Both the position numbers and the translations under genes were made by a program. The notes below the pieces were generated by a model. It saw only the letters and a list, made by a program, of their open reading frames with translations. It searched no databases and was not told the DNA's origin. A DNA stretch of 64,000 nt, taken from contig JBDROJ010000027.1 in assembly GCA_043810165.1 (NCBI GenBank), positions 36,974 to 100,973 on the forward strand, given 5' to 3'. This DNA is from a bacterium (GTDB lineage: Bacteria > Patescibacteriota > Patescibacteriia > Magasanikbacterales > GWA2-37-8). This document shows, in pieces, positions 16,803 through 61,235 of this stretch (the stretch's first letter is position 1; the number at the start of each line of letters is the position of its first letter).

Positions 16803-18417
<1,615 letters not shown>

Positions 18418-18431
18418 AAATATAATTTTAG

Positions 18432-18522
18432 ACTGTCATCCCGACCGAGCGTAGCGAGTGGAGGGATCTCAGTATAACACTAAGATCCCTGAACTCGGCT
18501 TTGTCCAGCTCAGGATGACAAT
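18432..18522. repeat. GC-rich nested palindromic repeat element (family 2 variant)
   Basis: CTGTCATCCCGACCGAGCGTAGCGAG...GGATGACAAT, with an internal GGGATCT/AGATCCC palindrome. A near-identical half-copy lies at 46392-46437. Confidence 0.75.
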
Positions 18523-18525
18523 AAT

Positions 18526-18963
18526 ATGGAAAAAACCCTTAAATTTAAAATTATAACCCCGGAAAAAATCGTTTATGAAGACGATATTTTTCAGGTTACA
18601 ATTCCTACATCGGATGGTGAAATTACTGTATTGGCTAATCATATTCCTTTAGTATCGGTTTTAAAAGCAGGGGATTTGATTATAAAAGACAAAAATGATC
18701 AACATCACATTGCTATTGCCGGTGGCTTTTTAGAAGTTAAATCCAATAATCAAATCATTATTTTGGCAGATAATGCTGAACGAGCTGAAGAAATTGATTT
18801 GGAACGAGCCGAAGAAGCTAGAAAACGTGCCGAAAAACAAATGAAACAAGCTAAGTCAACTGAAGACATTGACTTTGCCAAACTTCAAGGTATAATAGAT
18901 AGAGAAATGAACAGAATTAGGGTTGGAAAAAAGTATAAAAAATTACCTAAAGCAAGATCATGA
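18526..18963 (+). CDS. atpC: F0F1 ATP synthase subunit epsilon
   Basis: N-terminal beta-sandwich pattern (ITPEKIVYEDDIFQVTIPTSDGEITVLANHIPLVSVL) and a C-terminal helical hairpin. Confidence 0.85.
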   Translation: MEKTLKFKIITPEKIVYEDDIFQVTIPTSDGEITVLANHIPLVSVLKAGDLIIKDKNDQHHIAIAGGFLEVKSNNQIIILADNAERAEEIDLERAEEARKRAEKQMKQAKSTEDIDFAKLQGIIDREMNRIRVGKKYKKLPKARS

Positions 18964-42232: not shown

Positions 42233-43474
42233 TTATTTAAGATAATTAAGAGGATTTACAGGAATTCCATTTGAGCGAACTTCAAAATGAAGATGCGGAC
42301 CAGTAACGAATGGGCCTGCACCAACTGTGCCAGGAGTTCCTCCAGAATAGCCAATAAGATCACCTTTATTTACAAACTGATCTGGTACAACGGTGATTTT
42401 GCTCATATGTCCGTATAGAGTTGAAAGACTACCTGTATGGACCAACAATACATAGCTATAACATGAAGCACTATAGCAAAGTCTTGCATGGGCCACATAT
42501 CCTGATGAAGCTGCATACAACGGCGTCCCCTGTCCTATCCCAATATCAATACCACTATGTTCAAATACATGTCGGTACGGATAATCAGGATCGTGAAAAT
42601 ATGAGGTAATATATCTACTATTTGTCGGCCAATTAAACGAGGTATCTCCCCCGCCTTGAGAAATTTTATTTTGAGCCGCTAATTTCTTCTGAATTTCTCT
42701 TTCATAAGAACTAACTTCATCCTCAATGGCTTGATATTCTGTCTTCAAATTAGCCAACAAAGTCTGGTACTGTGACTCTGACCACTGTGTTTTAGCCAAT
42801 AAGCCATTTTTATAATTAGACTGATCCTGTTGATCTTGGCGCTGTAAAACAAGTTTTTTCTTTAATTCTTCTTGATCACTCTGATATTTTTCCGACTCTT
42901 TTTTCTTGGCATCTAATTCTTCTTTGCTTAAACGCAAGCTCTTTACGGTCCTTCCAAGATCTTGATAAACTGTTTCTAAATTTTGAATTTGATCATAAAA
43001 TTCAGAGAAGCTGTTGTTAGTTAACAAAATTTCCAAATAAGACTTATTCTGCTCGCGATTTATGTTGCGCAACATATTGCCTATTATACTCTTTTGCTTG
43101 GTAATCAACTTTTCTTTACCATCTATACTTATTTTCAAAGCGTCTATTTCCAATTGCGCCTTTTGAATTTTTTCATCAGTAAGATCGATGTCAGCTTGTA
43201 TTCTGGCAACATGATTCTCTATTATACTCAATTGATTTTTAAGTGAAACTGCTTCAAGCTGTTTTTCCTTGACATTTTCTTTGTACACGGCAATACTGTC
43301 TTCTAATTGTTTAATTTTCTCTTTTCTTTCGCTAATCTTTTTATTCAATTCACCGATCTCTTGTTCTGCAGTTTGAGCAAAAGAATTTTGTACTACAAAA
43401 ACTGGTTGTGCCAACAAGCTAAAAATTAAAATTGAAATTAATATTAATATTATGCGTTTCATGTTTATTGGCAA
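42233..43474 (-). CDS. M23/LytM-family peptidase with N-terminal signal/TM and long coiled coil (EnvC-like)
   Basis: C-terminal HxxxD...HxH motif region (GIDIGIG...HLHFEVR) preceded by ~250 aa of coiled coil. Confidence 0.8.
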   Translation of the reverse strand: MPINMKRIILILISILIFSLLAQPVFVVQNSFAQTAEQEIGELNKKISERKEKIKQLEDSIAVYKENVKEKQLEAVSLKNQLSIIENHVARIQADIDLTDEKIQKAQLEIDALKISIDGKEKLITKQKSIIGNMLRNINREQNKSYLEILLTNNSFSEFYDQIQNLETVYQDLGRTVKSLRLSKEELDAKKKESEKYQSDQEELKKKLVLQRQDQQDQSNYKNGLLAKTQWSESQYQTLLANLKTEYQAIEDEVSSYEREIQKKLAAQNKISQGGGDTSFNWPTNSRYITSYFHDPDYPYRHVFEHSGIDIGIGQGTPLYAASSGYVAHARLCYSASCYSYVLLVHTGSLSTLYGHMSKITVVPDQFVNKGDLIGYSGGTPGTVGAGPFVTGPHLHFEVRSNGIPVNPLNYLK

Positions 43475-43492: not shown

Positions 43493-43650
43493 CTGCCGTT
43501 GCGAGGAGTCAGGGTGTTATTGTCATTGCAAGCCTAAGCGACCCGCCTGCCAACGCCTGAAGTCAGAGGGCAATGACGGGCAGGAGCAATCTCATACTTA
43601 CTGTAGCAACGAGACTGCTCCGTCGCTACGCTCCTCGCAATGACGATGCT
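43493..43650. repeat. compound GC-rich palindromic repeat element (family 1, nested inverted repeats)
   Basis: Outer arms CGTTGCGAGGAG / CTCCTCGCAATGACG, with inner arms GTCATTGCAAGCC / GGGCAATGAC. Contains the 63-codon ORF 43452..43643, typical of repeat-derived pseudo-ORFs. Confidence 0.75.
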
Positions 43651-43679: not shown

Positions 43680-45152
43680 CTATACTACAATTCTTATGGC
43701 TTCCTCAATTCTTTGTAAAACTTTTTCTTTACCCAAAACACCAGCGATCTCAAATGGCCCTGGGGAATTCTTGCGCCCTGACAAAGCCACACGCATGGGC
43801 CAAAGCACTTCGCCATTAGTCAATTCATTTGTTTTGACCCATTCTACTATCCCCTGCTCTAGTTTTTCTTTGTCCCAGTCTTGAACACTAAATGTACTCA
43901 AATAATCTTTCAGGATTTCCAGATTTTTTTTGGTGGTTTGCTTATCGGATTTCTTCCAAATCAATAGTTCACTATCATACTCAAGCTTGCCAGCAAATAT
44001 AAAACCAACCGCTTCGGGCAAATCACTCAACTTATTCATACGCTCTTTTTCCAAAGCTACTACTTGTTCTAAATCTATATCTGTATGTCCAATATCTAGA
44101 CCTGCATTAACCAAAAATGGTTTACAGGCCTCTACCAAATCATCCAAATCCATACTGCGAATATACTGCTGGTTATACCAATCTAATTTATCTAAATTAA
44201 ATACGGCCGGAGCTTTAGAAACCTTATTAAAATCAAATTCTTTAATTAATTGCTCAAGACTAAATATTTCCCGTTCATCACCAGGATTCCAGCCCAAAAA
44301 AGCGATGAAATTAACCATGGCTTCAGGCAGATACCCGGCATCAATATAATCACGCACGCTTACATGCCCATGTCGCTTACTTAATTTTTGTTTCTTTTCA
44401 TTAACTAACAAAGATAAATGAGCATATTGAGGTAAATCCCAGCCAAACATTTTATAAAGCTGAATATGCTTTGGGGTTGATGGCAACCACTCTTCTCCTC
44501 TAATTATATGAGTAACTTCCATCAAATGGTCGTCAATTATGACTGCCAAATGATAAGTGGGAAAACCATCTGCCTTTAACAGCACCTGGTCATCAACTAA
44601 TTGATTTTTAAATTCTATTTCTCCCCTAACAATGTCCTTAATCACAGTCACCCCATCTTTTGGCATTTTCATGCGCACAATATACTCTTCTCCGGCCTCT
44701 ACTCTTTTTTTAGCCTCTTCTAGAGGTATCTCGCGACAATGGCCATCATAACCAGGAGCCATCTTGTTGACTTGTTGATATTCACGTAATTCATCCAGAC
44801 GTTCTTTGGTGCAAAAACAATGATAAGCATGGCCTTGATCTAACAATTGATCCAGATATTTTTTATAAATATCCAGGCGTTCTGATTGGATATATGGGCC
44901 ATTTTCGCCAGTTTGTGCAATATTATAGTCTTCTAATATAACTCCTTCATCAGGTTCTATACCTGCCCAAGCCAAAGAATATAACATATTTTCTACTCCG
45001 CCTTCAACATATCGTTCACGATCAGTATCTTCTACACGTAATAAAAATTTGCCATTTTGATTTTTAGCAAATAAATATTCAAACAAAGCAGTTCTCAAAC
45101 TGCCTACATGCAAAAATCCGGTTGGAGAGGGTGCAAATCGTGTTTTAATCAT
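43680..45152 (-). CDS. gltX: glutamyl-tRNA synthetase
   Basis: HIGH-region variant RFAPSPTGFLHVGSLRTAL and the KLSKR motif. Confidence 0.9.
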   Translation of the reverse strand: MIKTRFAPSPTGFLHVGSLRTALFEYLFAKNQNGKFLLRVEDTDRERYVEGGVENMLYSLAWAGIEPDEGVILEDYNIAQTGENGPYIQSERLDIYKKYLDQLLDQGHAYHCFCTKERLDELREYQQVNKMAPGYDGHCREIPLEEAKKRVEAGEEYIVRMKMPKDGVTVIKDIVRGEIEFKNQLVDDQVLLKADGFPTYHLAVIIDDHLMEVTHIIRGEEWLPSTPKHIQLYKMFGWDLPQYAHLSLLVNEKKQKLSKRHGHVSVRDYIDAGYLPEAMVNFIAFLGWNPGDEREIFSLEQLIKEFDFNKVSKAPAVFNLDKLDWYNQQYIRSMDLDDLVEACKPFLVNAGLDIGHTDIDLEQVVALEKERMNKLSDLPEAVGFIFAGKLEYDSELLIWKKSDKQTTKKNLEILKDYLSTFSVQDWDKEKLEQGIVEWVKTNELTNGEVLWPMRVALSGRKNSPGPFEIAGVLGKEKVLQRIEEAIRIVV

Positions 45153-45903
45153 GTAATTTAGATAACAAAATTCCGGCAGTTATGGCCACATTTAAAGATT
45201 CGGCTGAACCGCTTCCTTTTATAGTATACCGCTTATCCAGTAGTTTTTCAACTTGTGGATTAATTCCATGCGATTCTGAACCTAAAATATAAGCGGTCTT
45301 GATTTTTTTGTTTATTTTTAGCTCTTTTCCATTCATGGTCAAACCGGATATCTGATAACCTTTTTTCTTTAAACTAGCTAGGGTTTTGGCCAAGTCTTTA
45401 CTCTGAAATACTTTAACGCGAAAAATTGAACCCATGGTGGCGCGTACTGTCTTGGGATTGTATAAATCTACACAATCTTCAGACAAAACCACGCTATTAA
45501 CTCCAAACCAATCAGCTGTGCGAATAATAGCGCCGAGATTGCCCGGATCTTTAATACAATCTAAACAAATAATTGAATTACCGCCAATCTCATCTAACTC
45601 ATATCCAATCTGTTTTACTATAGCTAATACTCCCGGAAAAGTATCGGTATCTTTTATCTTGCCCACATCATTATCATTGCAAAAGTCTACTACTATGTGT
45701 TTTTTGTGAGCTAGATCTATTATTTTTATAAATTCTGGCTCTTGTTTCTTATTATTCTGCACAATCACTCGTTGTACCTGTGCACTCGATTCTATTGCCT
45801 CCACCATTCCTTTTACTCCCTCAACCACAAATTCACTATGCTCGCGTCGGTATTTTTTTTGTTGTAGTTTATTTATGTGCTTTAAAATTTTTGTTTGAAG
45901 CAT
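45145..45903 (-). CDS. SpoU/TrmH-family RNA 2'-O-methyltransferase (RlmB-like)
   Basis: SPOUT motifs: GNLGAIIRTADWFGV, LGSESHG and LNVAITAGILLSKL. Confidence 0.8.
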   Translation of the reverse strand: MLQTKILKHINKLQQKKYRREHSEFVVEGVKGMVEAIESSAQVQRVIVQNNKKQEPEFIKIIDLAHKKHIVVDFCNDNDVGKIKDTDTFPGVLAIVKQIGYELDEIGGNSIICLDCIKDPGNLGAIIRTADWFGVNSVVLSEDCVDLYNPKTVRATMGSIFRVKVFQSKDLAKTLASLKKKGYQISGLTMNGKELKINKKIKTAYILGSESHGINPQVEKLLDKRYTIKGSGSAESLNVAITAGILLSKLHD

Positions 45904-46655
45904 AATACTAGGTATAAAAATAAAAAAGTAGCTTTGAAAATTCTTTTTATACGTTTGGGTTGTTTAATTAAGCGATATAGCCACTCTAGACCTACTTTTT
46001 GCATCCACCTGGGAGCGCGTTTGGTTTTGCCAGAAATATAATCAAAAGCCCCGCCCACGCCCATGGCTAATTTAATACTTGATAATTTAGACAAGTTCTC
46101 ATATATCCATTTTTCTTGCTTACCATGACCAAAGGCAACAAATATAATATCCGGTTTGGTTGTGTTTATTCTTTTAATTAAGTCTTGATTTTGCTCTGAA
46201 GTTACATTCTTCAAATCCGGTCCTTTGTCATAACCAGCAATTTTTAAATTAGAGTATTTTCCATTCAATTTTTGGGTAGTTTTTTCTATCACCCGATCGT
46301 CACCAGAACCTAATAGATACACGCTTCTCCCCTGCTCTGAAGCTATTTGGCAAATATCTTGCATAAAATCTACTCCGGGAACACGTTCAAGAGATCCCTC
46401 CAATCGCTTCGCTCGGTCGGTCTGCAGGGATGACAATTTATATTTCAACCACAATCCAAACCCATCGCAAATATTCAAATCACCACTATTTAATACTTTT
46501 TTAAAATACTCGTCTTTTTGCGCATCAACCAGCATTTCCGGATTGGGCGTAAAAACCTTATGTTGTTTATCAGAATTCAAAAAACCTTCCGCCTTTTCCA
46601 AGGCTTGTTTTTTATTTACACGATCTATTCTTATTCCCATTACTTGTAGATGCAT
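45882..46655 (-). CDS. WecB/TagA/CpsF-family (GT26) glycosyltransferase carrying an in-frame half-copy of the palindromic repeat
   Basis: GT26 pattern (ICDGFGLWL...RVPGVDFM...IFVAFGHGKQEKWI). The start was trimmed to MHLQVMGIR. Residues LSSLQTDRAKRLEG are encoded by the repeat copy at 46392-46437. Confidence 0.7.
   Translation of the reverse strand: MHLQVMGIRIDRVNKKQALEKAEGFLNSDKQHKVFTPNPEMLVDAQKDEYFKKVLNSGDLNICDGFGLWLKYKLSSLQTDRAKRLEGSLERVPGVDFMQDICQIASEQGRSVYLLGSGDDRVIEKTTQKLNGKYSNLKIAGYDKGPDLKNVTSEQNQDLIKRINTTKPDIIFVAFGHGKQEKWIYENLSKLSSIKLAMGVGGAFDYISGKTKRAPRWMQKVGLEWLYRLIKQPKRIKRIFKATFLFLYLVLCFKQKF
46392..46437 (-). repeat. partial (single-arm) copy of the family-2 palindromic element inside the TagA-like CDS
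   Basis: The reverse complement TGTCATCCCTGCAGACCGACCGAGCGAAGCGATTGGAGGGATCTC aligns over ~45 nt with the 18432-18522 element. Confidence 0.7.
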
Positions 46656-46790
46656 ACTTATGATACATAATAACACAACTTGACAGGTTTTGACAATATA
46701 TGCTATTATCACTCTATAAGCAAGAGTGATAATAATCTCTTAATGATTAATACAATAATATAAATTATATTCTAAATATTTTATAAAAAT

Positions 46791-52515: not shown

Positions 52516-53631
52516 TTAATTATCAATGGTTTTTTTAACCACCGGCAATTCAAGCTCTAAGAGTTTGCCATTGCGCAATAATTTTATTTTAACTTTTTGA
52601 TTATTACTAAGAGTATACCATAGATTTGCCTCGTCAACAAGCAATCCGTTAATTTCTGTTATAAAATCGCCAACGCGCAACAGACTTTTTTCCTGCCAAA
52701 CGCCATCTATAACAAATCCATCTTCTCTTAAGCCATTAATAATTACAGGCTGTCCCTGACTGAACCAACCATTCACACCCAATGAAGGATATTCCAAACT
52801 TTTTTTATTTAAAAATTCAGACAGCATCCTGGTGATATAAGTATTGGGAAGCATTTTACCCTGGCCCATGCTAATCCCCACTACTCTGCCCTGCCCATTC
52901 ACAACTATCTTTCCCTGGCCGAAAGAACCACTTAAAAAATAACTGGAAGCCGGCGCCGTATCCAAGCGCAATTTTTGTTTGGTCAAATACGACCTCTGAC
53001 CGATTAAACTGTAATTCCAATCGCCTCCATCATAAACAAAAACTTCATCGCCATTTTTAATTGTCTCGCTAAAATTAACCACTTTAAATTGTCCTGATTT
53101 TATTTTTAAATAAACCAATCCTGAATTTTTGTCATTAACTTGCTTTTCTATTTCATAAACTCGATCATCTTGGCTCAAAGCCATCATTTTATTGTTCTTG
53201 CCAGGTAGCACAAAATCAGGCTTATACATAACTACCCAACCGTCTGAACTAACTAAAATGGCCTCGCCTAATTTTAATTGGTCATCCAGATAAATTGATT
53301 TGGAAGGTTCGGATAAATTAGAAGCCGATTGATAAACATATATGATTCGACTGGCTATCTCGCTATGAACCCTGTCTTCCAGCTGATTACGCGATATGGC
53401 CGGACGCTGATAAGAGGTTATCCAAATATCACCGGCTCCAACACTTGGCCATATCCAGCCCAAGACCATGGCCGCGCCAGACATACTTACAGCCAAACTA
53501 AAAAAAGCAACAAACAACAAAAATTTAAGTCTTTGCCAAAGACGATGGTTATACAAATTACATGAAGGCACGGGTAAATGCGGTGATATTTTTTTCATAA
53601 TTGTTATGTTCAGTTTAGATGTTATTTCCAA
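52516..53631 (-). CDS. membrane-anchored trypsin-like (HtrA-like, probably catalytically degenerate) domain + PDZ protein
   Basis: N-terminal TM. SGSFGQGKIVVNGQGRVVGI resembles the GNSGGPL...G.V.GI segment, but the His/Asp positions are not conserved. C-terminal PDZ-like GDFITEINGLLVDEANLWYTLSNNQKVKIKLLRNGK. Confidence 0.4.
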   Translation of the reverse strand: MEITSKLNITIMKKISPHLPVPSCNLYNHRLWQRLKFLLFVAFFSLAVSMSGAAMVLGWIWPSVGAGDIWITSYQRPAISRNQLEDRVHSEIASRIIYVYQSASNLSEPSKSIYLDDQLKLGEAILVSSDGWVVMYKPDFVLPGKNNKMMALSQDDRVYEIEKQVNDKNSGLVYLKIKSGQFKVVNFSETIKNGDEVFVYDGGDWNYSLIGQRSYLTKQKLRLDTAPASSYFLSGSFGQGKIVVNGQGRVVGISMGQGKMLPNTYITRMLSEFLNKKSLEYPSLGVNGWFSQGQPVIINGLREDGFVIDGVWQEKSLLRVGDFITEINGLLVDEANLWYTLSNNQKVKIKLLRNGKLLELELPVVKKTIDN

Positions 53632-54434
53632 CGAACCGCGAAAATTAAAAATAATAAAAATAAAATAAAATTTGCTCCTAAAAATTTAATTTGTCTTGCC
53701 CATTTGATTCCTTCAACAGTCAGGTTAAAACGCATTAACAGCCATAGAATATACCAAATCCAAATTAATATCAAACTGCCAACCATATGCCCAAAAGGCA
53801 GTTTTGATACTACCCAAATCAATTGCAATATTAAAATAAAAAACAATACTAAAGAAATTAAAAACTGCTTGCCGTATTTTAAACCATATTCCCACCACCA
53901 CCACCCGGCTAAAACCGTGCTGATTATGGCGGACATTATATACCAGACCCAATTATTAATTTGATATGCTATTTGAAATGAAATTAAGGCCTGTACGCCT
54001 GCGAAAATTCCGCTTAAGCCAACGGCCGTCATAATAAAACGCCATCTCATATGAGGCTTCATGGAAACAATCAAACTTATTTTAGAAGTCGGTAAAAACC
54101 AAAAGCTTAAAAAAGTCATTAGCAAAAATACAAGAGATAAAAGATACCAGCTTAAATTAGCTAAATGATCAACCGAATCTCTGTCTGTAAAGAGCAGTAG
54201 TAATACCAGCCCCAAACTCAATATTAACAAAGCCAAATAATGACGCCATCGTATTGCTTCCAATGGGTAATACATAAATCTGATAAAAATTAACCAGAGA
54301 GATTGCCTGCAGATCAAAATTATAACCAAAAACCACCAAGTCGGGGTTATTGTTAAAGAATATAAAAATAACGCACTCAAAAACAGATCAAAAATGGCTA
54401 CTAAACGAGGATGTAAAGAAATGGATTTTAGCAT
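53622..54434 (-). CDS. polytopic membrane protein, Trp-rich, hypothetical
   Basis: 7-8 predicted TM helices. Overlaps the downstream gene by 10 nt. Confidence 0.45.
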   Translation of the reverse strand: MLKSISLHPRLVAIFDLFLSALFLYSLTITPTWWFLVIILICRQSLWLIFIRFMYYPLEAIRWRHYLALLILSLGLVLLLLFTDRDSVDHLANLSWYLLSLVFLLMTFLSFWFLPTSKISLIVSMKPHMRWRFIMTAVGLSGIFAGVQALISFQIAYQINNWVWYIMSAIISTVLAGWWWWEYGLKYGKQFLISLVLFFILILQLIWVVSKLPFGHMVGSLILIWIWYILWLLMRFNLTVEGIKWARQIKFLGANFILFLLFLIFAVRWK

Positions 54435-54551
54435 AAATTTATCTTATTATACACTAAAATTGCTAAAAAGTCAAGTTTTGGCCATTGCTATCCAAATTAA
54501 ATTGTGCTATTCTAATATCTATTAAAGCCATACCAAGTTTTTTAAATTAAT

Positions 54552-54679
54552 CCTGTCATTGCGAGCGTAAGTGTTACTGTCATTGCGAGCGTAGCGAAGC
54601 AATCTCGTCGGTTCTAGTAATAACGAGATTGCTTCGCTACGCTCGCAATGACAAAAAAAACACGGCTCGCAATGACAGA
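54552..54679. repeat. GC-rich nested palindromic repeat element (family 1, full compound copy)
   Basis: Inner perfect 31-bp inverted repeat TGTCATTGCGAGCGTAGCGAAGCAATCTCGT / ACGAGATTGCTTCGCTACGCTCGCAATGACA, flanked by outer arms CTGTCATTGCGAGCG / GGCTCGCAATGACAG. Confidence 0.8.
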
Positions 54680-54714
54680 ATTAATACACCAAATCATCTG
54701 GTATAGAAAAAAAT

Positions 54715-55170
54715 ATGACTGGCAAATTACTTGCGAAAAACAAAAAAGCCTATTTTGATTATGAAATTCTGGAAACTCTAGAGGCTGGTTTAAAATTGCT
54801 TGGACATGAGGTAAAGTCAGCTAAAAATAGCAGTCTTAATCTAAAAGGCAGTTATATCACTTTCCATAAAGACAAGCCTGGCGTCAGTAATATGCATATT
54901 TCCAAATACAAGCCAGCCGGAGCCTTGCCAGACCACGATCCTGAACGCTGGAGAGATGTTTTATTGAAAAAAAAACAAATAGCTTATATAAAAGAAAAAT
55001 CAACTGAAAAGGGCTTGACAATCATACCACTTAAGGTGTATACTAGCGGACGTCTAATTAAATTAGAAATAGGCATTTGCAAAGGCAAAAAAACCTATGA
55101 TAAACGTGAAATAATCAAGAAACGTGACTTGGATAGAGAAATTAAACGTGATTTAAAAGGACAATATTAA
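54715..55170 (+). CDS. smpB: SsrA-binding protein SmpB
   Basis: N-terminus IAKNKKAYFDYEILETLEAGLKLLGHEVKS. Length 151 aa. Confidence 0.9.
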   Translation: MTGKLLAKNKKAYFDYEILETLEAGLKLLGHEVKSAKNSSLNLKGSYITFHKDKPGVSNMHISKYKPAGALPDHDPERWRDVLLKKKQIAYIKEKSTEKGLTIIPLKVYTSGRLIKLEIGICKGKKTYDKREIIKKRDLDREIKRDLKGQY

Positions 55171-55354: not shown

Positions 55355-55749
55355 GGGGGTGTCGGGCTTCGACAGGAATATTTGTTATCACCGGCATATT
55401 GAGCTGGCTCCATGCTCATAAATCTCTGGGGCGCAAACACAAATGCAAATTTGTACACAAAAGCAAAAACAGCTGTTGCACAAATGTTCAATAGCTACAA
55501 CTTTGCTCCGGCAATGGCTTAATTGCCTATGCCCATCGCGCTGGCCATACCTAGTAACCAGTTGCGGTGCCACTTACCAGGCGTAGGTTAAAAATCGTTC
55601 TGATAGATTTTTAACTGAAAGCAAATATTAGATAGCTATTTAAGTTTTGGTTCTCTTCCTACTTAATTAGCAAATTAAACAAGAGAACTAAATATGTAGA
55701 AGGTATTAACAAAATTATCTGCACGCGGGTTCAACTCCCGCCACCTCCA
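55355..55749 (+). ncRNA. ssrA: tmRNA (ssrA)
   Basis: The 5' end GGGGGUGUCGGGCUUCGACAGG matches the tmRNA 5' consensus (GGGGCUGAUUCUGGAUUCGACGGG). The 3' end GCGGGUUCAACUCCCGCC-ACCUCCA-C forms the T-arm and acceptor stem. The 7-bp acceptor pairing (5' GGGGGUG with 3' CACCUCC) includes one G-U pair, as in E. coli. An internal reading frame ends ...NFAPAMA-UAA. Located immediately downstream of smpB. Confidence 0.75.
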
Positions 55750-55768
55750 CTAAAGGTATAAACATTAT

Positions 55769-56960: not shown

Positions 56961-57062
56961 ACTATATTAAAACAAGACCCTGAAGCTGTTTGGTATTAGG
57001 AGAAGCGTCCCCTCCTTCGCTTCCTACCTATTACCAAACACCGTCAGGGTCTTTTTTGTTTT
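56961..57062. terminator. very long near-perfect hairpin (~35 bp stem) followed by a T-tract; bidirectional terminator between rplT and the convergent guaB
   Basis: AAGACCCTGAAGCTGTTTGGTATTAGGAGAAGCG / CGCTTCCTACCTATTACCAAACACCGTCAGGGTCTT followed by TTTTTTGTTTTTTT. Confidence 0.55.
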
Positions 57063-57063
57063 T

Positions 57064-58542
57064 TTATTCGTATTTACTATAATTAGGCGCCGAATCAACT
57101 TGTTGCAGGTCATGGGGATGGTTTTCTTTAAGACTGGCCGAAGTGGTTCTAACAAACACGGCTTTATCTTGCAGTTCTTGAATAGTTTTAGCACCACAAT
57201 AACCCATTCCACTGCGTAAACCGCCAGCTAATTGATATAATATTCGTTCTACCGGGCCTTTGTATAAAACCTTGCCACTGACACCTTCAGGAACAAATTT
57301 CTTTTTTTCTTGAATATGTCCTTGGCCATAACGATCTTTACTCCCCTGCTCCATGGCTTCAATACTGCCCATACCACGATAAACCTTAAACATCTTACCG
57401 CCTACATATTCTACCCTGCCTGGTGTCTCGTCTGTTCCAGCTAGCATATTACCCACCATAATGGCTTGAGCACCAATGGCCAGAGCTTTTACCACATCAC
57501 CTGAACTTTTGATACCACCATCAGCAATCACTGATATTTTTTTGCCTGGCATTGATTTAACCGCATCCACCACTTCTTTTAAAGCAGATAATTGTGGCAC
57601 GCCAACACCTGAAATAACTCTTGTGGTACAAATTGATCCTGGGCCGATACCTACTTTCACTGCATCAGCTCCGGCTTCCACCAAATCCCTGGCCGCTTCG
57701 GCCGTGGCAATATTACCGGCAATAATGGGCAAGCCAATATAATTTTGTTTAATTTGTCTAAGAGTATCAATTACCCCGGATGAATGTCCATGGGCAGTAT
57801 CAATTACTATCACATCCACTCCTGCCTTGACCAAAGCCTGCACCCGATCCACGGCCGGCTGGCCAACGCTTACAGCTGCACCAACGCGCAACTGTTTGGA
57901 TCCGTTTTTGCAAGCATAAGGATATATTTCATTTTTTTCCAAATCACGCCTGGTTACCAAATTAGTTAACTTGCCCTGTCCATCAACCACGCATAAAGTT
58001 TTTACTCTTTTTTCATGAATCATTTTATTGGCATCATCCAGACTAATCCCCTGCCTGGCCACAACCATTTCTGACAATGGAAGCATGCGATCCTTTACCA
58101 GTAAACTATCATCTTGAGGATGAAAATAATCAATATCTCTAATAATTCCAACCAATACGCCTTGATTATCAACAACCGGCACTTTTTTAAAACCAAATCT
58201 ATTTTTAATCTCTGCCACTTTGCTGATTTGGTCATCCGGAAGAATAGTGATCGGATCTTCTATAAAACCATTTTCAAAACGCTTGACCAGGCTTACTTCA
58301 TCGGCCTGTTCTTGCACGCTTAGATTTTTATGGATAATGCCGATACCGCCAGTTAAGGCCATGGCAATGGCCATCTTGTGTTCAGTGACTGTATCCATGG
58401 ACGCGCTTAAAAATGGCGTGTTTAATTTTATGTCAGCAGTCAAATAAGTTTTTAATTCTGCATCTTTTGGCAAAATAAAAGACTTCTGCGGGACAAGCAA
58501 AACATCGTCAAAAGTTAGGGTTTGTTGGAAATTTTGAAACAT
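57064..58542 (-). CDS. guaB: IMP dehydrogenase (with CBS pair)
   Basis: Catalytic loop GIGPGSICTTR and NAD/IMP motifs (GGIKSSGDVVKALAIGA). CBS domains are inserted. Confidence 0.9.
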   Translation of the reverse strand: MFQNFQQTLTFDDVLLVPQKSFILPKDAELKTYLTADIKLNTPFLSASMDTVTEHKMAIAMALTGGIGIIHKNLSVQEQADEVSLVKRFENGFIEDPITILPDDQISKVAEIKNRFGFKKVPVVDNQGVLVGIIRDIDYFHPQDDSLLVKDRMLPLSEMVVARQGISLDDANKMIHEKRVKTLCVVDGQGKLTNLVTRRDLEKNEIYPYACKNGSKQLRVGAAVSVGQPAVDRVQALVKAGVDVIVIDTAHGHSSGVIDTLRQIKQNYIGLPIIAGNIATAEAARDLVEAGADAVKVGIGPGSICTTRVISGVGVPQLSALKEVVDAVKSMPGKKISVIADGGIKSSGDVVKALAIGAQAIMVGNMLAGTDETPGRVEYVGGKMFKVYRGMGSIEAMEQGSKDRYGQGHIQEKKKFVPEGVSGKVLYKGPVERILYQLAGGLRSGMGYCGAKTIQELQDKAVFVRTTSASLKENHPHDLQQVDSAPNYSKYE

Positions 58543-58588: not shown

Positions 58589-60469
58589 ATGAATAACGAA
58601 CATGAAATAGTTATATTGGATTTTGGCTCCCAATATACACATCTTATTGCCCGTCGTATTCGCGAATTGGGCTTGGTTTCGCATATTTATGATAATGATA
58701 CGCCTGTAAGCCAATTAGATAATGCAGTTGGCATAATACTATCCGGAGGACCTAAAAGCGTGCTGAACCAACAGCGACTTGATTATGATCCAAGACTTTT
58801 TGATTTAAATCTGCCAATTTTGGGAATGTGCTATGGACATCAATTAATTACTCAACATTTTGGCGGACAAGTTGTGTCCGGAAAAAGCAGAGAATACGGC
58901 CTGGCCAAAATAAAAACAAAGCCCTGCTCCCTGTTTGAACAAGTGGACTCGCAAACTCAAGTATGGATGAGCCATGGAGATCATGTAGCCGAACTGCCTC
59001 CGGGATTTGAATCTATTGCTATTACTAATAACGATGCCAACACGGCCATGGCCAATACGGATAAAAATATCTACAGCCTGCAATTTCATCCGGAAGTAAC
59101 TCATACAACTCAAGGCAAACAGATGCTGTCCAATTTCATATTTAACATCTGTAAAGCTGAAAGAAATTGGACTACAAATAAAATGTTGGAACAAATTCAA
59201 TCTGAAATTAAACAACAAGCTGGATATAAAAATATTTTTCTCTTAATTAGCGGTGGAGTTGATTCCACGGTTTGTTTTGCTTTATTAGAAAAAACCTTGG
59301 GCAAAAAACGAGTCTATGGCCTGCATATTGATCATGGTTTGATGCGTTTAAATGAATCGGCACAAGTTAATCAAGCTTTGAAAAATATCGGATTAGATGA
59401 CCTTCATATTTACAATGCTGAAAAGCAATATTTGCATGCTCTTGACGGCGTGGCCGATCCTGAACAAAAGCGAAAAATTATTGGAGATTTGTTTTTAGAC
59501 ATAGCTGGCCAGGTTATGGTTAAAAATGGCATGGATGACGGGCAATGGCTATTGGGCCAAGGCACAATTTATCCGGACACCGTTGAATCTGGCGGTACCA
59601 AACAAGCTGATTTAATCAAAACTCATCATAATCGTGTTCCTCGAGTGCAAGAAATGATTGCTCAAGGAAAAATCATTGAACCAATCAGAGAATTGTACAA
59701 AGACGAAGTGCGTCAAATCGGCCTTAAACTAGGATTGCCAAAAAATCTGCTTTATCGCCATCCTTTTCCTGGCCCTGGTTTGGGGATTAGATGTTTGTGT
59801 TCAGATGGCTTATCATTGTCAGCCCGAAGGGCGATGCAATCCCGTCTTATCCCTGTCATTGCGAGCGTAAGCGAAGCAAGCCCGTTATTACAGAACCAAC
59901 AGGATTGCTTCGCTTACGCTCGCAATGACAAAGAAAAACAGACTCTCAATAACAAATTTTACAAACTACCTATTAAATCAGTGGGTGTGCAAGGTGATGA
60001 GCGTTCTTATGCTTATCCGGCGTTAATAAATAAACTTGATTGGGAAGAACTGCGCGTTATTGCACCGCAAATTACCAATCAGCATCAAGACATTAATCGC
60101 GTTTTAGTTTTGGTTTCAGGTAATCCAGATAAAATTGCACAATCAGATTTAAAGCCTGCATATATAACAAAACAAAGGCTTGAACTTTTGCGCCAAATTG
60201 ATCACATAGTGAATAAGAATATTCTTAACAATCCCGATTGTTCTCACATATGGCAATTGCCCGTAGTAATGATTCCTTTTGGTTATAATAAGAAAGAAAC
60301 CGTCGTCTTAAGACCGGTTGAATCAGAAGAAGCCATGACTGTATCTTGGGCGCAAATTTCCGATGGTATTTTAAATGAAATTATACAGGAGATTAACCGG
60401 CTTGAAGCAGTTGATTTTATCATGTATGATATTACCAATAAACCACCAGGTACAATTGAGTGGGAATGA
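58589..60469 (+). CDS. guaA: GMP synthase (glutamine-hydrolysing) carrying an in-frame palindromic-element insertion
   Basis: GATase domain (GMCYGHQL). PP-loop SGGVDSTV. C-terminal dimerisation region (KSVGVQGDERSY). At 626 aa it is ~100 aa longer than typical, and includes the repeat-encoded segment PVIASVSEASPLLQNQQDCFAYARNDKEKQ. Confidence 0.9.
   Translation: MNNEHEIVILDFGSQYTHLIARRIRELGLVSHIYDNDTPVSQLDNAVGIILSGGPKSVLNQQRLDYDPRLFDLNLPILGMCYGHQLITQHFGGQVVSGKSREYGLAKIKTKPCSLFEQVDSQTQVWMSHGDHVAELPPGFESIAITNNDANTAMANTDKNIYSLQFHPEVTHTTQGKQMLSNFIFNICKAERNWTTNKMLEQIQSEIKQQAGYKNIFLLISGGVDSTVCFALLEKTLGKKRVYGLHIDHGLMRLNESAQVNQALKNIGLDDLHIYNAEKQYLHALDGVADPEQKRKIIGDLFLDIAGQVMVKNGMDDGQWLLGQGTIYPDTVESGGTKQADLIKTHHNRVPRVQEMIAQGKIIEPIRELYKDEVRQIGLKLGLPKNLLYRHPFPGPGLGIRCLCSDGLSLSARRAMQSRLIPVIASVSEASPLLQNQQDCFAYARNDKEKQTLNNKFYKLPIKSVGVQGDERSYAYPALINKLDWEELRVIAPQITNQHQDINRVLVLVSGNPDKIAQSDLKPAYITKQRLELLRQIDHIVNKNILNNPDCSHIWQLPVVMIPFGYNKKETVVLRPVESEEAMTVSWAQISDGILNEIIQEINRLEAVDFIMYDITNKPPGTIEWE
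59852..59931. repeat. palindromic repeat element (family 1) inserted in frame within guaA
   Basis: CTGTCATTGCGAGCGTAAGCGAAGCAA ... TTGCTTCGCTTACGCTCGCAATGACAA with a 25-nt loop. The guaA ORF reads through without a stop. Confidence 0.8.
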
Positions 60470-60587: not shown

Positions 60588-61235
60588 TTACTTCTTCTTT
60601 TTGGCTGAAGCTTTTTTAGGTGCGACTTTTTTAGAAGCAACTTTTTTCGCGACTTTTTTTGGCTCTGCCTTTTTTACAGTTTTTGCCTTTTTCTCTTTTA
60701 CAAGTTTTCCAATCTTTGCTTGCTTGTTAATTCCCGGCTTCTCTATGTTATTTACAGCGTCATTTGGGCTTAATATTTTTATAAGCTTATCCATTTTAGC
60801 GTTTAACATCTTAATTTGATCCATAACCTCTCCAGAATCCTTACTGCCGGTTCCGCCCTTTTCAAAACAATTATTGCAATAAATAGGCTTGCTGGTCATT
60901 GGTCTAAAAGGTATTTGGCAGTCATTTCCGCACTTAGCGCAAACTGCATTATACATTTGCTTGTCTTCAAAACGAGGCCTCTGGCGTCTTTCTTGGCTGA
61001 AACTATTGGATCTACCACTGCCACCGCCTTGTTTTTCAAAACAATCACTGCAAAATACTGGCCTGCTTCCGGTTGGCTTGAAAGGGATTTCACAACTATT
61101 GCCACAGTCGCTACAAGTAGCTCTGTGCATGGCAGGTCTGCCACCACTGTCTCTTCCACCATACCTATTTCCGCCACTAGATCCACGGCTAAAGCCATTA
61201 CTTGATCTTTTATTATCTCGATTAAAACTTCCCAT
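60588..61235 (-). CDS. putative nucleic-acid-binding protein: N-terminal RGG/Gly-Arg-rich region, two tandem CxxC...CxxC zinc ribbons, C-terminal lysine-rich histone H1-like tail
   Basis: Two repeats of C..CG..C.IPF.P....P.(F/Y)C..CFEK. N-terminus SNGFSRGSSGGNRYGGRDSGGR. C-terminus KKAKTVKKAEPKKVAKKVASKKVAPKKASAKKKK. Confidence 0.55.
   Translation of the reverse strand: MGSFNRDNKRSSNGFSRGSSGGNRYGGRDSGGRPAMHRATCSDCGNSCEIPFKPTGSRPVFCSDCFEKQGGGSGRSNSFSQERRQRPRFEDKQMYNAVCAKCGNDCQIPFRPMTSKPIYCNNCFEKGGTGSKDSGEVMDQIKMLNAKMDKLIKILSPNDAVNNIEKPGINKQAKIGKLVKEKKAKTVKKAEPKKVAKKVASKKVAPKKASAKKKK

Follow-up and report, generated by a model that had tools for sequence, protein, structure and literature searches.

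A palindromic repeat of the REP/RPE type probably inserted in frame in the GMP synthase gene of a Patescibacteria genome, with a possible link to a small GIY-YIG nuclease gene

Palindromic repeats that lie in frame within genes have been known from Rickettsia and a few other bacteria as a curiosity. The Rickettsia palindromic elements (RPEs) are said to have been described by Ogata et al. in 2000, and the REPIN-RAYT systems and REPtrons reportedly by Bertels and Rainey in 2011 and by Nunvar in 2010. Here, we describe a comparable element in a 64-kb stretch of DNA from contig JBDROJ010000027.1 (the window), in which a palindrome lies in frame within guaA, the gene for the glutamine-hydrolysing GMP synthase (58589-60469, + strand). 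This element is, very probably, a non-coding, hairpin-forming interspersed repeat of the repetitive extragenic palindromic (REP) or RPE type that landed in guaA, and not a native part of the enzyme. A literature search that combined candidate phyla radiation (CPR) bacteria with REPs, miniature transposable elements with inverted repeats (MITEs) or in-frame palindromes returned nothing specific, which is not proof of novelty.

The CGTC-tagged REPs are known from five phyla and include dRS3 of Neisseria as well as RPE-4 and RPE-6 of Rickettsia, which are equated with CGTC-4 and CGTC-1 REPs, respectively (Di Nocera, De Gregorio and Rocco, 2013; PMC3733652). They carry the tag CGTC, often TGTC, have a stem that starts with A-T and T-A pairs and a CCA tail, are found mostly as head-to-head dimers and, in that account, are without a dedicated transposase. 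REPs inside open reading frames (ORFs) are tabulated there, with in-frame CGTC and GTAG dimers, including RPE-4 and RPE-6, that encode 20-30 amino acids; furthermore, intragenic REP/RPE dimers occur in several phyla, and essential replication, repair and tRNA-related genes are among their hosts (PMC3733652). An earlier note, written from the letters of the window, had likened the guaA element to RPEs and had known of no in-frame palindromes in essential genes of such a genome. The likeness is apt, given that RPE-4 and RPE-6 are classed with the CGTC-tagged REPs, which the guaA unit resembles; the novelty was overstated, as such insertions are documented in several phyla (PMC3733652). Novelty may lie instead in the phylum of the host, in this particular family of units and in the link of that family to a GIY-YIG gene.

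The inverted repeat in guaA has arms of 40 nt (59847-59886 and 59898-59937) that are 88% complementary, with 11 nt between them. Both a repeat search and the exact 25-mer GTCATTGCGAGCGTAAGCGAAGCAA, present on both strands, place it within the guaA ORF where the earlier note had reported it. The perfect arms of that note are likewise real, except that they measure 26 nt and not 27: the perfect stretch is the inner 26 nt, TGTCATTGCGAGCGTAAGCGAAGCAA, and the outermost base is mismatched (C versus T). The 25-mer occurs exactly once per strand (59855-59879 on the + strand and 59905-59929 on the - strand) and found no match in 100 dinucleotide-preserving shuffles. Folded as single-stranded DNA (ssDNA), the palindrome reaches -36.7 kcal/mol, against -8.7 ± 2.1 kcal/mol for shuffled sequences (z = -13.1), and none of 200 shuffles was as good; the RNA fold of 59805-59945 reaches -64 kcal/mol (z = -8).

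The insert as a whole is an older, decayed single unit (U1) followed by a head-to-head dimer (59852-59931). The left dimer unit, U2 (59852-59883, + strand), reads CTGTC ATTGC GA GCGTAAGC GAA GCAA GCCCG and contains the exact 25-mer; the right unit, U3 (59901-59931, - strand), is inverted and carries the 25-mer on the minus strand, and the folds place the dimer spacer, or loop, at 59884-59900. A covariance model of the unit (R1, derived from 60 units and run unfiltered on the window) matches U2 at 59854-59883 (31.7 bits, E = 1e-4) and U3 at 59901-59930 on the minus strand (38.5 bits, E = 4e-6). The tails of this copy are GCCCG and CCT. U1 (approximately 59811-59846, + strand), the degenerate unit TATCATTGTCAGCCCGAAGGGCGATGCAATCCCG, is read in frame as LSLSARRAMQSR(LI) and has the layout of one palindrome arm, namely a head, a 5-bp stem ATTGT/GCAAT and an inner hairpin GCCC-GAA-GGGC; in the RNA fold it forms a small hairpin of its own, AUUGU..GCCC-GAA-GGGC..GCAAU, and it aligns with the 5' units in the GuaA linkers of two orthologues (L121 and L122). 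The palindrome encodes PVIASVSEASPLLQNQQDCFAYARND (residues 422-447), the peptide already named in the earlier note. That note's total of 27-30 added residues was too low, since the insert with U1 runs from about 59811 to 59931 (residues ~408-448) and supplies some 35-40 extra amino acids; the residues KEKQ lie outside the palindrome element.

GuaA was aligned with 27 and then with 118 orthologues, and the linker was taken as the stretch between the invariant C404 (RCLC) and L460 (LPIKSVGVQGDER). It connects the ATP-pyrophosphatase domain to the first dimerisation subdomain, as had been proposed. With 55 amino acids, the linker of the window GuaA is the longest among the 118 orthologues, tied with one other, and the median is 29; in the closest relatives (62-68% identity) it measures only 17-24 amino acids, and the segment is absent from all of them. 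Because of this difference in length, and because the insert has a G+C content of 50% against 38% elsewhere in guaA, the segment appears to be a lineage-specific insertion, which is the outcome that the earlier note had looked for in such an alignment. Furthermore, as the arms of U2 and U3 are complementary at 26 of 26 positions and the insert is missing from the closest relatives, the event would seem to be recent in this lineage. Those of the nearest orthologues that bear names are Magasanikbacteria or Patescibacteria, and the window has a G+C content of about 36%, in agreement with the AT-rich, CPR-like genome suspected earlier.

The host gene, judged by its sequence, looks functional, with all catalytic motifs kept. 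The reading frame runs through the element as part of an intact ORF of 626 amino acids, the product of which is a 100% match to a protein of a metagenome-assembled genome (MAG) at NCBI, encoded on a 120.6-kb contig, and has the Pfam domains GATase, NAD_synthase (ATP-PPase; NAD_synthase/QueC-type) and GMP_synt_C. It aligns end to end with human GMPS (2vxo), a long form with two dimerisation subdomains. In the alignment of 118 sequences the amidotransferase triad (C81, H167 and E169), the SGGVDS P-loop (221-226), the IKTHHN lid (343-348) and the C-terminal KPPGTIEWE all fall in invariant or nearly invariant columns. An AlphaFold2 model built on the same alignment has a mean predicted local distance difference test (pLDDT) score of 86.3 and a predicted template modelling (pTM) score of 0.86; residues 423-451 have pLDDT values below 50, the block 411-420 averages 62, and residues 421-453 are given no secondary structure. 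By this prediction, the insert forms a disordered surface loop between well-modelled domains.

We suppose that the insert survives as a passenger, a disordered loop of some 35-40 amino acids in a linker that is unstructured and variable in length, and that only frame-keeping, stop-free copies would survive in a needed gene. The insert is free of stop codons in just one of the six reading frames, which is the frame used by guaA; a single open frame would be the expected residue of such a selection filter and is, on its own, no proof of a protein. An intein, an intron and translational bypass were ruled out, since the element is much too small for them, Pfam finds no such domains and the ORF reads straight through. 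A promoter or an intrinsic terminator within guaA was also dismissed, because a scan of 59600-60200 detected no terminator-like and no promoter-like site.

Units of the same kind are found in the guaA genes of other CPR bacteria. The guaA DNA of seven CPR orthologues with long linkers or other inserts (L121-L124 and L205-L207) was examined, and model-positive units lie inside guaA in all seven, within the same linker in L121, L122, L124, L205, L206 and L207 and at other permissive sites in L123 and L124. These copies differ in stem type (ATTGC, ATTGT, ATCCT and ATCCC) and are read in different frames, as VIAS..., RHCERSEAIP..., CHPERSEGS... or VILS.... In a MAFFT alignment of 120 GuaA sequences, 20 have at least eight extra residues at the linker site, and there are five recurrent internal insertion sites besides the linker. 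As a separate observation, repeat-derived peptides occur elsewhere in GuaA, after residues ~110, 212, 309, 450 and 480 (window numbering), in the orthologues P0031, P0032, P0037, P0068 and P0007 (L123, L124 and L207), with three separate inserts in P0037. Another orthologue, P0011 (792 amino acids), has a 154-residue N-terminal extension with endonuclease-type domains (PF04480 and PF18741) that terminates in the repeat-like peptide SLPFVREGPGVGY; this extension has the look of a further small and selfish nuclease gene, placed upstream of guaA by fusion or mis-joining.

These orthologues bear on two other explanations. The first is that the hairpin or its peptide has been co-opted, for mRNA stability, translation pausing or as a functional loop, and is selected rather than tolerated. 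It could draw on the great stability of the guaA mRNA hairpin (-64 kcal/mol), on the recurrence of units at the same linker in many orthologues and on reported effects of REPs on mRNA stability (PMC3733652). However, unit types, frames and encoded peptides vary between the orthologues, so that no peptide is conserved; the insert is absent from the closest relatives, and its segment is predicted to be disordered; the same units occur in intergenic DNA and in an unrelated gene; and the guaA region showed no terminator or promoter features. Co-option therefore seems to us quite improbable. The second, an assembly artefact in which a repeat-induced chimera or a MAG mis-join put the palindrome into guaA, has in its favour that the source is a metagenome-assembled contig. 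Against this, the frame is kept through ~120 nt of an insert that is open in a single frame, both flanks are colinear guaA and units occupy the same linker in independent assemblies from other samples, and we regard the chance of an artefact as very slight indeed.

Some of our own results limit the reading of a repeat that landed in guaA. No empty-site allele and no relative above 68% identity turned up, so that the exact boundaries and the age of the insert are inferred; U1, with its weak covariance-model match (59811-59843, E = 8.9), is less certain than the dimer; and GuaA with the insert is a putative expressed and active enzyme. Furthermore, the uncommon inner start GAGCCC is common to the 5' units of the window, L121 and L122, which hints at one old insertion with later turnover and not at fully independent insertions. 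A single ancient insertion in the ancestor of this GuaA clade, renewed by nesting or gene conversion and lost elsewhere, would also fit the position of the first unit head, within ~3-30 nt of the conserved CLCS(D/E)G codons in eight orthologues, and the frequency of nested copies. Because the first head is similarly placed and the GAGCCC start is shared, some common ancestry of the upstream unit is plausible. Many intervening orthologues nonetheless have short linkers and no recognisable unit, the perfect U2/U3 arms speak for a recent event, and both the frames and the distances from CLCS differ, so that we hold one ancient insertion to be rather unlikely as a full account.

The covariance model finds five loci of this repeat in the window; at two of them, in guaA and in a tagA-like gene, the repeat lies in frame within the coding sequence. 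The intergenic relatives that the earlier note had placed at 43.5 and 54.6 kb are borne out by sequence and by the model; the loci at 18434-18520 and 46391-46435 are additional to its list. The copy at 54546-54685, between ORFs 53622-54434 (-) and 54715-55170 (+), is a nested one, with a complete dimer between the two heads of an interrupted outer dimer. It has 63-nt arms that are 86% complementary, folds with -59.5 kcal/mol (z = -17) and is matched at 54578-54606 (+) and 54625-54653 (-) with 43.2 bits each. The copy at 43495-43648 is nested too, in a degenerate form, and lies between an ORF that ends at 43474 and one that starts at 43680 (matches at 43611-43645 (-), 35.9 bits, and 43521-43593 (+), 17.7 bits). 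The nesting at both loci indicates that new copies tend to settle in or beside old ones. No target-site duplications were found at the window copies, which are flanked by TTATCC and AAGAAA, by AATCC and GAATT, and by TAGAC and ATAAT.

A dimer of a sister family with an ATCCC/GGGAT stem occupies 18433-18520 (matches at 18434-18470 (+), 28.7 bits, and 18482-18520 (-), 14.2 bits). It fills the atpD-atpC spacer, between ORFs 17023-18417 and 18526-18963, which from their translations we take to encode the beta and epsilon subunits of ATP synthase, and it would be co-transcribed with the atp operon. Finally, ORF 45882-46712 (-), a WecG/TagA-family glycosyltransferase (Pfam Glyco_tran_WecG), contains a single unit, TGTCATCCCTGCAGACCGACCGAGCGAAGCGATTGGAGGGATCTC (46391-46435, - strand), which the model matches with 15.5 bits (E = 0.27) and which is translated in frame as SSLQTDRAKRLEGS. 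In an alignment with the solved TagA structure 7mpk, gaps of 6 and 3 residues in 7mpk fall exactly at SSLQTDRAKRLEGS, and this single in-frame unit would reflect the same frame-keeping filter that we suppose for guaA.

What, then, is the repeat unit? It is 29-45 nt long and consists of a (C/T)GTC tag, a 5-bp stem, GA(G), an inner mini-hairpin, GAA, the complement of the stem and a CYN tail. In guaA, the stem is ATTGC (complement GCAAT). The inner mini-hairpin of the family is GCGNAGC, in which the variable N is the centre of a GNA triloop, or a longer self-complementary hairpin in its place. The usual dimer has the form (C/T)GTC ATTGC GA GCGNAGC GAA GCAAT CCAG - spacer - CTGG ATTGC ... GCAAT GAC(G/A). 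A scan of GTDB, with one genome per species and the pattern GTCATTGCGAGCG-N(1-3)-GCGAAGCAA, gave at least 143 copies in at least 120 loci and in many phyla, and most of the 143 genomic copies listed are head-to-head dimers. Among the matches listed, the hosts include Bradyrhizobium, sphingomonads and other Alphaproteobacteria, Delta- and Gammaproteobacteria (Legionellales and Coxiellaceae among them), Chloroflexi, Planctomycetota, Bacteroidales, Hymenobacter, Fibrobacter, Melainabacteria and a Parcubacteria MAG.

The 5-bp outer stem covaries: the pairs ATTGC/GCAAT, ATCGC/GCGAT, ATCCT/AGGAT, ATTCT/AGAAT, ATTCC/GGAAT, ATCCC/GGGAT and ACCGC/GCGGT all occur, and heads other than ATTGC are followed 3-40 nt downstream by the exact complement of their stem in 61 of 300 cases, as against 10 of 300 for a shuffled 5-mer. 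The 60 aligned units had been selected by their outer stem alone, which makes the pairing of the outer helix a product of the selection; in the inner helix, which was not selected, one pair shows the compensatory changes CG, GC, AU and UA, and the structure of the whole unit scores better than all 500 shuffles and all slid registers. By nearest-neighbour energies, a lone unit, with its 5-bp stem and small inner helix, is no better than shuffled sequence (z ~0). GCGNAGC mini-hairpins and tandem G·A pairs are more stable than nearest-neighbour rules predict. In Rfam, the whole window at gathering thresholds matched the transfer-messenger RNA (tmRNA) family alone, and the element at permissive thresholds gave generic hairpin matches to microRNA models far below their cut-offs and no family of its own. 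A protein search with the 44-residue insert peptide gave no candidate, and a search of the literature for the literal sequence or peptide of the element returned chance primer matches only.

In other bacteria, the unit is associated with a protein-coding gene. Some genomic copies consist of a single unit and non-palindromic sequence, and in L023 (Planctomycetota) and L074 (Bacillota) the latter is an ORF of 95-96 amino acids; L081 is a third locus with an ORF of this type beside a unit. Each of the three ORFs is placed exactly between a pair of inverted units, of sister stem types in L081, with 10-25 nt from the end of the upstream unit to the ATG and 0-11 nt from the stop codon to the start of the downstream unit. 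Pfam assigns these proteins to GIY-YIG (PF01541; E = 1e-15 to 1e-18). Unit, GIY-YIG ORF and inverted unit thus make up a REPtron-like layout without a RAYT transposase. The association was tested at 80 metagenomic loci (L125-L204) picked by protein pattern alone, with no reference to the DNA repeat. The head GTCATTGCGAG (with up to 2 mismatches) lies within 150 nt upstream of the gene at 67 of 80 loci, compared with 30 of 608 control windows from the same loci, and CTCGCAATGAC within 150 nt downstream at 69 of 77, compared with 33 of 608; single heads are thus carried by ~5% of control windows, and both heads are present at 59 of 75 loci. Of the 77 loci whose downstream sequence was long enough, 38 have a GATTGC that starts 0-2 nt past the stop codon. 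The 95-aa GIY-YIG family has at least 8000 sequences at E <= 1e-10, from many phyla and mostly on short contigs, and a literature search for GIY-YIG combined with REP, REPIN, RAYT, MITE or palindromic repeats found no connecting paper.

As a side observation, the unit-GIY-YIG-unit element of L023 (4960-5560) sits at the 5' end of a 668-aa ORF, presumably pheT by reading of its translation. The first ~37 codons (~110-125 nt) are also present upstream of the element, as a truncated duplicate, with the intact gene downstream; this layout suggests an insertion that regenerated the start of the gene.

Would classical REPIN biology explain the dimers equally well? A RAYT (Y1/HUH, IS200-like) transposase would then move them by way of ssDNA hairpins, and the link to the GIY-YIG gene would be incidental. 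The architecture is indeed that of a REPIN, a spacer between a pair of inverted hairpin units and no target-site duplication. The GCGNAGC core is a very stable ssDNA mini-hairpin and would suit a single-strand transposase. However, the tag is (C/T)GTC and not GTAG, and no RAYT is flanked by CGTC units in any species of that survey (PMC3733652). Three tyrosine-transposase (TIRYT) queries, taken from the RAYT/TIRYT alignment in Additional file 5 of that article, found nothing in the window by phmmer and one marginal match in 205 sequences (L091, E = 0.004); for the GIY-YIG gene, by contrast, units stand on both sides in ~80% of 75 loci. We consider a RAYT-driven origin unlikely. An association with RAYT was accordingly dropped as a candidate, as phmmer gave no convincing RAYT-like ORF in the 205 sequences.

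We tentatively propose, as a possibility that we rate well below even, that the (C/T)GTC units are non-autonomous partners of an unrecognised, pan-bacterial class of mobile elements built around the 95-aa GIY-YIG gene. Head-to-head dimers such as that in guaA would then be the ORF-less form of the element, and the units, on the model of the other bacteria, would depend on a small free-standing nuclease gene. A structure-specific nuclease might act on the hairpins or on a cruciform, followed by repair-mediated copying, and this proposal would account for the lack of target-site duplications, for the nested copies and for a near-identical unit across phyla. Other considerations pull the opposite way. 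The pattern seeds came from beside units, so that the result applies to this GIY-YIG subfamily; neither the window nor any of the seven related GuaA loci of CPR bacteria was found to contain a GIY-YIG ORF, and no CPR name is among the best 120 GIY-YIG homologues. The bracketing is an association, the link comes from outside the CPR, and mobilisation is putative: the GIY-YIG gene could equally prefer to insert into existing dimers, or the units could equally be expression signals of the gene.

The consequences of these findings are of two kinds. First, part of the variation in protein length among CPR bacteria, and some of their odd extra peptides, is repeat debris; annotation is affected through spurious VIAS... 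and ...ARND peptides, as are family alignments and the structure prediction of CPR enzymes. If the proposal above is true, decayed units would also contribute regularly to the varying loop lengths of housekeeping enzymes in CPR bacteria. Second, we know of no bacterial insertion sequence (IS) that uses the GIY-YIG nuclease family. If the GIY-YIG gene does mobilise the units, it would define a new transposon-like system, answer the question of 2013 as to what moves CGTC-type REPs, supply the missing mobilising enzyme for these and for RPE-like in-frame palindromes, and explain the near-identity of a 25-nt sequence from Bradyrhizobium to CPR bacteria.

Some neighbouring features of the window may be recorded here. 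The nested repeat at 54.6 kb is followed, ~670 nt further downstream, by a tmRNA gene (55355-55752, + strand; Rfam RF00023, 134 bits). Directly downstream of guaA, ORF 60588-61235 (-) encodes a protein of 215 amino acids that is Gly/Arg-rich at the N-terminus and Lys/Ala-rich in its tail and contains two CxxC-x(n)-CxxC modules. An inverted repeat at 56970-57057, with 31-nt arms that are 87% complementary, is unrelated to the (C/T)GTC unit family; it lies just downstream of ORF 57064-58542 (-), an IMPDH-like gene that we take from its translation to be guaB, and is probably a terminator.

In comparison with known systems, the guaA element is like the RPEs in being a multi-copy palindromic repeat of a small AT-rich genome (five loci in 64 kb), in lying in frame in housekeeping genes whose ORF and conserved motifs are intact (guaA and the tagA-like gene), and in lengthening the protein by a few tens of residues where its surface permits it, here by AlphaFold2 prediction and not from a solved structure. 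It differs in that the host belongs to the Patescibacteria/CPR and in that the unit family is common to many free-living phyla. The peptides VIPVLDTGI (CGTC-4) and VIPAKAGI (CGTC-1) of the CGTC-family repeats in Wolbachia are unlike VIASVSEAS and CFAYARND here, in a comparison that leaves aside the R. conorii rows, and the VIAS..., HCE... and ...ARND signatures are absent from the intragenic REP list and supplement, as far as available, of PMC3733652. The shared tag and tail suggest a relationship of the guaA unit to RPEs at the superfamily level only.

REPIN-RAYT systems have in common with this repeat two inverted hairpin units and a spacer that together form a long hairpin, and REPtrons a protein-coding partner between inverted units, which here is the GIY-YIG gene of other bacteria. 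The partner is, however, a 95-aa GIY-YIG nuclease (PF01541) where theirs is a Y1/HUH transposase, and mobility is inferred in our case; their GTAG tag is absent, and phmmer found no RAYT ORF in the window. Similarly, IS-derived MITEs (Correia/NEMIS and ERIC) are short, non-coding, inverted-repeat elements that at times lie inside ORFs, but they have target-site duplications, of which the window copies show none, and their arms are terminal inverted repeats that bind a transposase, whereas the arms here are hairpin units with internal covariation.

The likeness to the CGTC-tagged REPs extends to the terminal tag (TGTC where the window units are clearest, and either CGTC or TGTC in the majority of the 143 genomic copies listed), to the A-T, T-A start of the stem and short CCA-like tail (here ATTGC...GCAAT and then CCA, CTC or CCC), and to the prevalence of head-to-head dimers in several phyla, with occasional in-frame dimers of 20-30 amino acids and no associated RAYT. 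A candidate dedicated nuclease gene between units emerged from our analysis, whereas none is reported in PMC3733652. The stem of the CGTC REPs is an uninterrupted 8-9 bp with a loop of 4-5 nt, and the guaA unit instead combines a stem of 5 bp with a GA/GAA internal loop and an inner hairpin that varies in length; on this stem geometry we rejected full membership in the four published CGTC families. Thus, because the tag, the first bases of the stem, the tail and the dimer habit are shared and the 8-9-bp stem is not, we place the guaA unit in a sister family within the CGTC superfamily.

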